Shown here: positions 12,001-15,000 of the stretch, piece by piece
Position numbering within the stretch: the first letter of the stretch is position 1
Layout: the number at the start of each line of letters is the position of its first letter
Position numbers: made by a program
Source: an uncultured Clostridia bacterium
Lineage (GTDB): Bacteria; Bacillota; Clostridia; Christensenellales; CAG-314
NCBI GenBank assembly: GCA_947623225.1
Contig: CANQGO010000004.1
Location: forward strand, 5,894 to 69,893
Direction: 5' to 3'
DNA: 64,000 bases

Positions 12001-15000
12001 AGCGACCTCTACGCCATTTTCGGTAACTTCTATTTTGATCTTGAGTCCCAGATCCACATAGTACGTACCCAACCAATCGGACTGGCGCGTCCAATCGATA
12101 TACTCCGTAATGTCACTGTAGAAATAGCACACTCCACTGTTTTCGCGCACAAATATCCATCTATACGGTTGAACGTCCGACAAATTTTCTTGTGCACTCA
12201 AGTCGGACTGTAACATATAATTTGTTCCACCGTACGTGAAGCAGATCACATAGTAGTAAACAGTAAACGAATAATTCTCCGTATCTGTGCCGATTGCAAA
12301 TTGCACGCTGTCTGCCGGTATGTCACAACTGATAAGCTTACCGGATATACTTATCCCCTGCGCGGATATGATCAAAGTGTGAGGGTAATAGTATGTATCT
12401 GAATCCCGAATATACGCCGTATACTCTCCCAGCGCGAACATGTAACTCGGCGCAGTGTACAAAGGGAGGCTTGCCCCGCCGAAAACATCTCCGCTAAGTA
12501 TCAGACCGGATACCTTCATACCCCCCCCCCGTAAGAACGGGGGTAATGGTAAGGGAATGTCCCAAATAAATGAAGGTAAAGCCTTGTTCGTGATTGAATT
12601 GCACGTTGTCTGCCGGAATTGCTTCGCCGTTGAATGACAATCCGTCTTCAGTGATGGTCACAAGGAATTCGCCAAGGTCGGTCACATACGTTCCGACAAA
12701 TTCGCTGCGTTCGATCTGCGGCTTGGGACCGGGTTCGCCGGACTCTTTATCCATGTCGATATCTATGTCAAGATTGTCGTCATAGAAATTGACTGTATCC
12801 GCATCGTCAGGATCTATATCAATGTAATAAATCGTATCACCGCAGATAATGCGGAACGTTATGCCCCCCAAATAATCATCTTCATACACAGACCATCTGT
12901 CCGCATATATAGGATCACTGTCGGGAAGTTCTATACAGATATACCCTTCGCCGATCGTCACTGTATAATCGTTCAAGTAATCGTCTGAACCGAAATATAT
13001 ACCGTAATAGTCGGCATAGTCGGCCTCGTCCAATTTTTGAACAAAAGACACCTGAATGGGTTCTTCAAACTCGTCGGACTGTATCATAATATAACGTTGT
13101 CTGCTGCCAAAGAAATTCTCTTCGGTGTAGAAAAGGTTGTACTGTATACCTTCCGAACTGACCACGAGACCGAGTGCTTCGCTCCAATACAACACCTGTG
13201 CGGGCTTGAGACCGTCGCCTGCGTCTATCTGTACATTGCCTTCGGCATCGATCTGTACAGCGAAAGTAAGCGTATCATCTTCGTAATAGCCTGCCCATGA
13301 GGTAATACTCGGCAAAGAGTACTCGCTGTTTCTGAGTAAAATGCTCTCTGTGCCTTCATCTGCAAAGATTTGCAGAGTTATAAAGTTCTTGCCGTCGCCC
13401 GGCTGTATAGCACCGTACTGATCATTCCAGATGAAGTCAAGTTCATAGTAGATCGCACCCGTTTCACCGTCGAACAACTTATATAATTCGATATCGCTTG
13501 CAGCAGTTGCTTCGTTGCCCTGAGCCGCAATTGTTATTCCATCATTGGTGATAGTCACCGTATAGTCGTCGTTGGTGTAAGTACCGGCAAGAGCAGACCA
13601 ATCTGTATACTGCTCATAGCGAGAGAGCAATGCGATGGGTTCATCGTCCACATAGAGTATGAACTCATATCCGTAGTCATCATTTTGACGCAGAGCATAC
13701 GCTGACGAACCTATCGTGAAGTCGATCTCATACAACCATATTCTTTGCTGAGTGGAAATCAATGTGAACATGTAACGGTCGATGATCAGGTCATTGATCT
13801 GCTGTGCCACGCCGTTGATCTCAAACACAATCTCGTCTGAAGTTATCTGCAGTTCATATGCGTGAGAAGCGTCATCAACACCGGCATAATTGCCTACAAT
13901 TCCGCTTATGTCTATGGGCGTAACTTCAGCCTTGGTGAACAAGTCTATCGCCTCTTCCTGTGCCTCATCAAACAGCAACAATCTGTCGTAGGTAGAGCCG
14001 TGCTGTTGCAGAACATATTCCGTATTTCCTACAGAGAAGAAGAACACGCGCACCGAATAAAATGGATTGTCATTGTACTCGATATTATTCCAAGCTATGG
14101 TAACGGCCTCCTGACCTGCAAGAGTCAGCGTAATGCCTGTACTACGATCGATCTTGATGCTATTGCCTTCCGTCTCACCTGTGTAGTCACCATAGTAGGG
14201 CGTGGGATCGTCGTCTTTGGCTCCTTCATATTCACTTGTATAGAGGTTGAGCAAGTAAATGTAATAATATCCTTCTTCTACCTCATCGTAGTAGTACATA
14301 TAGAATTCCACTTTGCCGCCATTGGGGTCAAAAGTCAAATCGAGATACAATTCATAAGTCGTGCCATCATCATCTTCGATTTCAGTCCAGAACATACTGA
14401 GTATGACCGCACCGGAATCTTCTATCCAATCGAAGTCGGAGATAGCAAGAACATTGCGAGTACTATTGATGGTGATGATGACATTGTCTTCCACCTCATC
14501 GTTGATCTCCACCGAGATAGGATCACTTGAGGAACCGCTACTTGAATTGGACACAAATGTACCGGTGTAAGTGCCGAGCAGATCTTCCCAGTAGCAAGAC
14601 ATCTCGCGAAGTTCGTGCACTACCGCGTCTATACCCTTGATGGTTATAGAATCACCGAGGGTCAACGTATATATATCGTTGCCGCAATCGACAGTGTAAG
14701 TATTGTCTGCGTTTTTGGTGATATTGGCTGCAGGGACTTCGTTGACGGATACGCCATCCAAGGTGATCTCAACAGTGATACCGCACTCATTGCATGTATA
14801 CCAGCCAATATATTCGGGATCTATACCGAGTTTGCCGTCTGTAATGTCCGACGTCAGCGCGAAGGGCAATGTCGCTCCGCTCCAATCGTAACTCAGAGTG
14901 ATAAAACTTATTCCGCCAAAGAAATAATCGTCAGTATACATACTTACTGTATCGACCATTCCGTTTTTGACGGTGACGTACATAGTCTCAGCCGCTTCCA

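Follow-up and report, generated by a model that had tools for sequence, protein, structure and literature searches.

Two neighbouring open reading frames (ORFs) on the minus strand of a contig from an uncultured Clostridia bacterium of the CAG-314 lineage (assembly GCA_947623225.1, contig CANQGO010000004.1) meet at a run of ten G's, and the question that this locus raises is whether the run is a phase-variable switch in the gene of a giant surface lipoprotein, a base miscounted during assembly, or the mark of a gene that is being lost. In this study, which was based on 64,000 nucleotides (nt) of that contig (positions 5,894 to 69,893; hereafter the window, in whose numbering the coordinates are given unless another contig is named) and on a comparison with related loci, we conclude that the two ORFs are a single surface-lipoprotein gene that carries a recent or reversible one-base frameshift. 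We also lean, with modest confidence, towards the run being a functioning slipped-strand switch between a long and a short form of the protein, of which the assembly would hold the short state. The features on which this reading turns are the following, with protein lengths in amino acids (aa).

12521..12530, minus strand (C10 on the plus strand): G10 homopolymer (tract 1), the frameshift site, which encodes Gly-Gly-Gly in the upstream frame
12494..16894, minus strand: upstream frame, 1466 aa, with the C-terminal end ...PVLTGGGYEGIRSDT and a stop eight out-of-frame codons past tract 1
11518..12519, minus strand: downstream frame, 333 aa, beginning MKVSGLILSG... and holding three more modules, which makes up the last 18% of the fused protein (1791 aa)
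16980..17009, minus strand: promoter-like site of the split gene, TTTACG-18 nt-(TG)TATAAT
11465..11494, minus strand: strong terminator-like hairpin that immediately follows the stop codon of the 333-aa frame
11406-11434, minus strand: promoter of the next paralogue, TTTACT-17-TATAAT, which also has its own ribosome binding site (RBS)

On the minus strand, positions 12540-12494 read CCGTTCTTAC-G10-TATGAAGGTATCCGGTCTGATACTTAG, with CCCGTTCTTAC as a shorter left flank. The original prediction had placed a G10 run at the junction of a 1466-aa and a 333-aa ORF, had put the ATG of the latter one nucleotide after the run and in another frame, and had expected a G9 run to give one ORF of about 1791 aa; the sequence and ORF coordinates, the ORF calls and an in silico rebuilding of the gene bear out these three statements in turn. 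The ATG of the 333-aa ORF stands one base past tract 1, and the two frames share just 26 nt (12494-12519). Among the rebuilt tract lengths, G6, G9 and G12 gave a single open frame of 1790-1792 aa (1791 aa for G9), G7, G10 and G13 a stop after 1465-1467 aa (1466 aa for G10), and G8, G11 and G14 a stop after 1458-1460 aa (1459 aa for G11). Tract 1 lies inside the 1466-aa frame and, at ten G's, exceeds the length of about eight G/C bases from which a homopolymer counts as hypermutable. A length change of +/-1 at tract 1, which occupies codons 1463-1466 and lies 82% along the gene, toggles the product between full length and truncated. In the proposed mechanism, tract 1 would be a slippage-prone simple repeat in which G's are lost or gained during replication; G9 and G12 would yield the long form of 1791-1792 aa, while G10 and G11 would yield short forms of 1466 and 1459 aa that are missing three distal modules. 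The switch would thus alter the exposed distal end of the protein, i.e., C-terminal phase variation, and the protein itself would be retained. We infer that the tract length varies at this site and that both of the protein forms are made and functional.

The two ORFs are read as one gene because they are served by one promoter and one terminator-like hairpin, because there is no second signal peptide and because homology extends across the junction. No promoter-like or terminator-like site was found between the two ORFs, and neither a signal peptide nor a lipobox was found in the 333-aa product. The family module profile (about 90-100 aa) matches three further modules in that product, and a continuous BLASTP alignment over the junction pairs residues 1398-1643 of the fused protein with residues 655-886 of its closest homologue, P0002, with E = 2e-12; in this alignment, ...TPVLTGGGMKVSG... 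lies opposite ...LTDGQGKLNGG.... The earlier view that the 333-aa ORF, being without a signal peptide, is the natural C-terminus of the protein is supported by the same modules and the shared transcription unit. In this composition the probability that 333 codons stay open by chance is about 2e-7, and because the 333-aa frame is both open and homologous to the modules, the frameshift must be recent or reversible. When the fused sequence was searched against a collection of 5.8 billion proteins, neither the 1466-aa nor the 333-aa product was present, while an 838-aa protein from the same contig was; this absence would fit an annotation of the gene as a frameshifted pseudogene at the source.

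The 1466-aa frame starts with a signal peptide and the lipobox LLVVAAC (MKRTKTLIVAILCLTLVLTSALLVVAAC), which are followed by InlB B-repeat (Flg_new_2) domains, a conserved central region and modules of about 100 aa. The fused protein ends in about 11 beta-rich modules of roughly 100 aa, which start at about residues 695, 772, 900, 999, 1102, 1200, 1296, 1399, 1497, 1607 and 1733, and tract 1 is located past the conserved core of the eighth of them. The extent of this region is given below.

About 14800-11518, minus strand: beta-rich repeat region, fused residues about 690-1791

The repeat, of about 90-100 aa and with the motif phi-x-G-x-Y ... ITxxG ... Y-x-L, makes up the C-terminal two-thirds of the lipoproteins. 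No Pfam family was matched by the module, and a Foldseek search of the AlphaFold model built from the module alignment against the PDB gave no match below E = 0.1. In that model, which was based on a 26-module alignment, residues 1-60 form a confident seven-strand core, with a predicted local distance difference test (pLDDT) score of 78-91. In a MAFFT alignment of 34 modules, the residues MKVSGLILS-GDVF-GGASLPLYT fall opposite the last two strands of the 33 sister modules. As predicted from this layout, the short form would clearly keep the anchor, the InlB B-repeat domains, the central region and eight module cores, and would lose the three distal modules. The original prediction had allowed for either an ON/OFF or a long/short switch; since the tract lies late in the gene, 82% along it and after a complete module core with eight cores before it, a long/short switch at the C-terminus is to be expected rather than an ON/OFF one, and only the former part of that claim stands.

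A run of this kind is foreign to the window. Apart from the two runs of ten that it holds, G runs in the window do not exceed five and C runs do not exceed six (one case of six). The window would be expected to contain about 0.03 G/C runs of at least ten if its bases follow a first-order Markov model, or 0.2 if they are independent of each other, against two observed, and the rough estimate made at the outset, that such a run is expected less than once, is therefore exceeded in strength. In 1.32 Mb of related Clostridia loci there were no G/C runs of at least nine and only two runs of eight. Moreover, in 18 window genes GGG is the rarest Gly codon (60/949; 6.3%), and of the remaining 38 Gly-Gly and 7 Gly-Gly-Gly sites not one has GGG codons in succession, tract 1 being the only place where they are found. 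From the spectrum of run lengths and the rarity of GGG it follows that tract 1 opposes both the composition and the codon bias. The tract is real in kind, as an error could change its length but could not create it.

The second run of ten lies elsewhere in the window, and its surroundings are as follows.

37754..37763, minus strand: second G10 tract (tract 2), with the flanks AC-G10-TAT as in tract 1, in a promoter spacer
37748..37778, minus strand: near-consensus promoter-like site, TTTACA-TTTCGGCAC-G10-TATAAT, whose spacer of 9 nt + G10 comes to 19 nt
35181..37697, minus strand: 838-aa lipoprotein gene downstream of tract 2, with the lipobox LSAC and the ATG at 37697
37703-37708, minus strand: RBS AGGAGG of the 838-aa lipoprotein gene

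It had been proposed that a second G10 in the context AC-G10-TAT sits in the promoter of another lipoprotein gene, and its position can now be given more exactly, within the spacer between the -35 and -10 elements. A tract of G9 gives an 18-nt spacer and a tract of G8 a 17-nt spacer, which is the optimum. A promoter scan that was limited to spacers of 16-18 nt gave no match at this site, where the spacer is 19 nt. Hexamers like those of the tract 2 promoter also mark the other two lipoprotein promoters in the window, at a spacing of 17 nt in one and 18 nt in the other.

Poly-G tracts also recur at lipoprotein genes of a sister species, which is represented by GCA_947586855.1 and by ENA assemblies of the same study. 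Synteny at the split gene reads pgk-tpi-gpmI-lipoprotein(1459 aa)-paralogue-secG-rnr-smpB in this species, and in the positional orthologue P0001/P0147 (1459 aa) the sequence AC-G9-TATCCCC stands 67 nt ahead of the start codon. With a TTTACA-17-TACAAT promoter upstream of it, this G9 probably belongs to the 5' leader, and it was found at the following sites.

Contig L084, 677-685: leader G9 of the orthologue
Contig L088, 5728-5736: leader G9 of the orthologue
Contig L091, 1756-1764: leader G9 of the orthologue

The G9-TAT-CCCC sequence of this leader could form a small hairpin. The sister species also has a homologue of the 838-aa protein, P0024, which is 42% identical and whose gene is not syntenic with that in the window. 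Its promoter, TTGACA-AATGCCTGC-Gn-TATACT on contigs L085-L090, has the same design as that of tract 2, with 9 nt + Gn making up a spacer of 19 or 20 nt; of five assemblies, four have G10 and one has G11.

The same design was looked for beyond these two species by scanning metagenome contigs for G9+TATA[AC]T, and 80 loci were examined among the matches listed, to which the following counts refer. A perfect TTGACA stands 15-20 nt upstream of the -10 element in 22 of the 80, while about 0.1 of 80 would be expected by chance (six spacings at 1/4096 each), and several of these tracts precede genes with a signal peptide or lipobox. Four promoters were sampled more than once, with flanks that are 90-100% identical, and all four differ in tract length (G11/G9, G11/G10/G12, G11/G12 and G9/G12).

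Near-identical promoter sets on metagenome contigs from different samples, serving secreted or unknown proteins: L095/L142, L119/L124/L151, L115/L159 and L154/L158

Consensus error can hardly account for differences of two to three bases, and poly-G promoter spacers look common in metagenomic bacteria. A tblastn search with the window lipoproteins gave no matches among the 80 metagenome loci, from which it follows that those promoters serve unrelated secreted proteins.

The tracts share their flank as well as their setting. Across the window and the sister species there are five distinct G runs of at least seven; each of them is followed by TAT and three are preceded by AC, whereas only one of about 90 runs of G5-6 is followed by TAT.

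G runs of at least seven with TAT: window 12521-30 and 37754-63; contig L084, 677-685; contig L085, 2500-2506 and 4940-4949

Two of the five TATs belong to -10 boxes; the others are TATGAA within the gene, TATCCC in the leader and TATCAC between convergent genes. The shared flank may point to a common origin or to an undescribed sequence requirement. The placement, the codon choice and the recurrence at lipoprotein genes are the signature of contingency loci, found in two species and at three positions, and tract 1 would belong to a small set of poly-G tracts at surface-lipoprotein genes in which the others sit in a promoter spacer, where they would act on transcription, or in a 5' leader. It is conceivable, although we hold this broader proposal more doubtful than the switch at tract 1, that the lineage keeps a small phasome of G(7-11)-TAT tracts for its large surface lipoproteins, placed in a promoter spacer, in a 5' leader or in the coding region as a long/short switch, with a promoter design that is widespread and length-polymorphic in gut metagenomes.

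The window holds three tandem paralogous genes for giant lipoproteins (4259-16894, minus strand; 1140, 1220 and 1466+333 aa) between gpmI and rnr. The GpmI protein is at most 82% identical to those of Clostridiales and Clostridia metagenome-assembled genomes (MAGs) from rabbit, Hadza and other gut samples, and the relatives as a whole come from rabbit, human and ruminant gut MAGs. The closest GpmI relatives that were checked (L001-L006 and L008-L010) are without the lipoprotein gene. Between gpmI and rnr, distant relatives (L001 and others) have none of these lipoprotein genes, the sister species has two and the window three, which makes this a lineage-specific, expanding accessory cluster. 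The best matches in a homologue search with the fused protein were 31-35% identical and confined to the N-terminal 780 aa, and there is therefore no true orthologue of the junction.

Taken together, the indirect evidence favours a tract that is real, selectively maintained and slippage-prone, and several observations weigh against its being a working switch. The evidence at tract 1 itself is a single consensus call. Exact-protein look-ups with the 333-aa, 1466-aa, GpmI and 838-aa products found no other strain, and a genome-contig scan with the 333-aa product and a metagenome-contig scan with the fused C-terminus found no relative. Among the orthologous loci, whose comparison the original prediction had suggested, there is a poly-G tract upstream of the positional orthologue, but P0001 and P0002 have no intragenic tract, i.e., the site of tract 1 is not conserved. 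The leader tract of the orthologue is uniformly G9 (3/3 assemblies), and the sister tracts in general are nearly uniform; the lone G11 at the P0024 promoter comes from a contig with 2.6x coverage and could be an error. As to a loss of structure in the short form, the part of the module model that comes after tract 1 has a pLDDT of only 42-64, and a leave-one-out hidden Markov model (HMM) of the module matches at profile positions 5-67 of 88, before tract 1 only. Because this HMM does not reach across the junction, the claim that tract 1 cuts the core of a domain was dropped. A single-sequence AlphaFold model across the junction was unusable (pLDDT 36).

Among the other explanations, a miscount of the homopolymer survives best, and although we consider it unlikely, it has to be taken seriously. 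The true genome would then have G9 (or G12), the gene would be intact at 1791 aa and the split would be an artefact of the assembly or consensus; the tract would still be real and slippage-prone, but its state could not be read from this record. A change of a single base suffices to restore the 1791-aa frame, runs of ten G/C bases are hard to size on all platforms, and the absence of both ORF products from the protein collection also fits a frameshifted annotation. The sister contigs, which come from seemingly similar SPAdes metagenome assemblies, have a coverage of only 2.6-6x. In Bifidobacterium breve, G-tract lengths in the databases disagree with those from error-corrected sequencing (PMC9187656). 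However, no homopolymer-associated frameshifts were found elsewhere in the window, where A7, T8 and two T7 runs lie within intact ORFs and gpmI, tpi, pgk, dnaX, polA and rnr are all full length, which lowers the probability of a miscount and does not remove it. Moreover, tract 2 is G10 and the sister promoter is G10 in four independent assemblies, from which it follows that assemblers arrive at this length time and again. A miscount would explain the length of tract 1 but not its existence, the use of the rarest Gly codon or the recurrence of such tracts. The two explanations are not fully exclusive, as a gene with a miscounted G9 would still be slippage-prone.

It is distinctly less probable that a recent inactivating frameshift was fixed in a fortuitous G run, with one of the three tandem paralogues now decaying into a truncated gene or a pseudogene and no adaptive switching involved. 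The redundancy of three tandem paralogues makes such a loss plausible, and it would agree with the absence of the intragenic tract from the orthologues of the related species and of the whole cluster from distant relatives. However, the 333-codon frame has remained free of stops and has retained its homology to the modules, and three successive copies of the rarest Gly codon are unexpected under drift. Slipped-strand mispairing raises the mutation rate of G9-G10 runs, and a run of this length would mutate back and forth at a raised rate in any case.

Least probable of all is recoding, in which the DNA would be stably G10 and slippage of the RNA polymerase or a +1/-2 ribosomal shift would set a fixed ratio of short to long protein: long homopolymer runs do provoke transcriptional slippage and the frames overlap by just 26 nt on one mRNA, but such slippage is established in bacteria for A/T runs and is less efficient at G/C runs, the second frame requires +1 or -2 rather than the easy -1 (the -1 frame, which is the G11 case, stops after two codons), no stimulatory element was identified, and the two-ORF layout is not conserved, with P0001, P0002 and the window paralogues all being single ORFs.

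A functioning long/short switch at tract 1, which thus remains the reading that we favour, has its closest precedent in the sortase-dependent pilin genes bbr_0113 and bbr_1889 of Bifidobacterium breve UCC2003, likewise a Gram-positive gut commensal, in which replication slippage in a G tract acts as a switch (PMC9187656). There, as here, a tract of about 10-12 G's in a surface-protein gene splits an ORF with the signal peptide from a C-terminal one, certain tract lengths fuse the two, and the tract length in a database can be unreliable (PMC9187656). The two cases differ in that B. breve belongs to the Actinomycetota rather than the Clostridia, and in that its switch is an ON/OFF one for a pilin, since the LPXTG anchor is encoded in the second ORF (PMC9187656), whereas the lipobox anchor is N-terminal here. 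As a consequence of the N-terminal lipobox, the short form should still be displayed. Error-corrected deep sequencing and work in mice demonstrated the B. breve switch (PMC9187656), whereas the present one is predicted from the sequence. A similar case is Helicobacter canadensis, for which Snyder et al. (2010) described C-terminal phase variation: G tracts stand within the final fifth of its coding regions, where a change in length alters or truncates the C-terminus without turning the protein off, and the genome has promoter tracts as well (PMC2823697). Tract 1 and tract 2 have a like placement. H. canadensis is, however, an epsilonproteobacterium with dozens of tracts and with length ranges at the level of reads, in contrast to two tracts in 64 kb of purely assembled sequence (PMC2823697). 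On this comparison, the position of tract 1 at 82% of the gene would match the C-terminal phase variation of H. canadensis better than an ON/OFF switch.

Poly-G or poly-C tracts between the -35 and -10 elements are known from porA and opc of Neisseria meningitidis, and repeats in promoter spacers from hifA/B of Haemophilus influenzae. Tract 2 and the homologous promoters resemble porA and opc in that the repeat fills the spacer, so that the distance between the hexamers, relative to the optimum of 17 nt, depends on the length of the repeat. However, the Neisseria and Haemophilus cases are from Gram-negative pathogens, and expression was measured for each length. Here, a 19-nt spacer is seen at tract 2 and at the homologous promoter in 4/5 sister assemblies. 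A further likeness is to the Campylobacter phasome, in which G8-G11 tracts stand at genes for surface structures and shift in position between orthologues (PhasomeIt, PMC6321876), although Campylobacter has no mismatch repair and carries about 20-30 tracts per genome (PMC6321876). The structural features that define these classes of phase variation are, at the level of sequence features, present at the loci described here. What is new here is a known type of poly-G locus in a little-studied group, together with the unexplained Gn-TAT flank.

If the switching is true, the exposed tip of a protein of some 1800 aa would stochastically become shorter or longer in this commensal, a second lipoprotein gene could be tuned separately at its promoter, and the outcome would be a heritable and reversible diversity of the surface under immune, phage or niche pressure. 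If the broader phasome proposal is true as well, slipped-strand loci would be a common and overlooked route to surface variation in commensal Firmicutes, beside invertible promoters. Studies of phase variation in commensals of the gut have mostly dealt with DNA inversions and methylation, and poly-G loci in uncultured Clostridia are little documented. Genes of this type are annotated as pseudogenes or as two ORFs and are thus hidden by automated pipelines, and the length of such a tract in a MAG is not to be trusted at face value.

Some minor observations were made around both tracts. The C5 run that lies 8 nt upstream of tract 1 could pair with the first five G's of the tract, as part of the following element.

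12526..12543, minus strand: inverted repeat C5 - 8 nt - G5, CCCCC-GTTCTTAC-GGGGG (CCCCCGTTCTTACGGGGG), which covers the 5' half of tract 1

An internal promoter formed by tract 1 (G10 + TATGAA) was considered and rejected, as no hexamer resembling a -35 element lies at any suitable distance and the supposed -10 element shares bases with the ATG. At tract 2, a SigI-type promoter was set aside: -35 elements of the SigI type are C-rich on the coding strand, and the G's of the tract are on the coding strand. Immediately upstream of the 838-aa gene, the following features were found.

37815-37842: terminator-like hairpin of the upstream gene, between the sigma/anti-sigma genes and the 838-aa lipoprotein gene
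37870-40445, minus strand: genes for a sigma factor resembling those of extracytoplasmic function (ECF; Sigma70_r2/r4_2) and for an RsgI-like anti-sigma factor with PepSY domains

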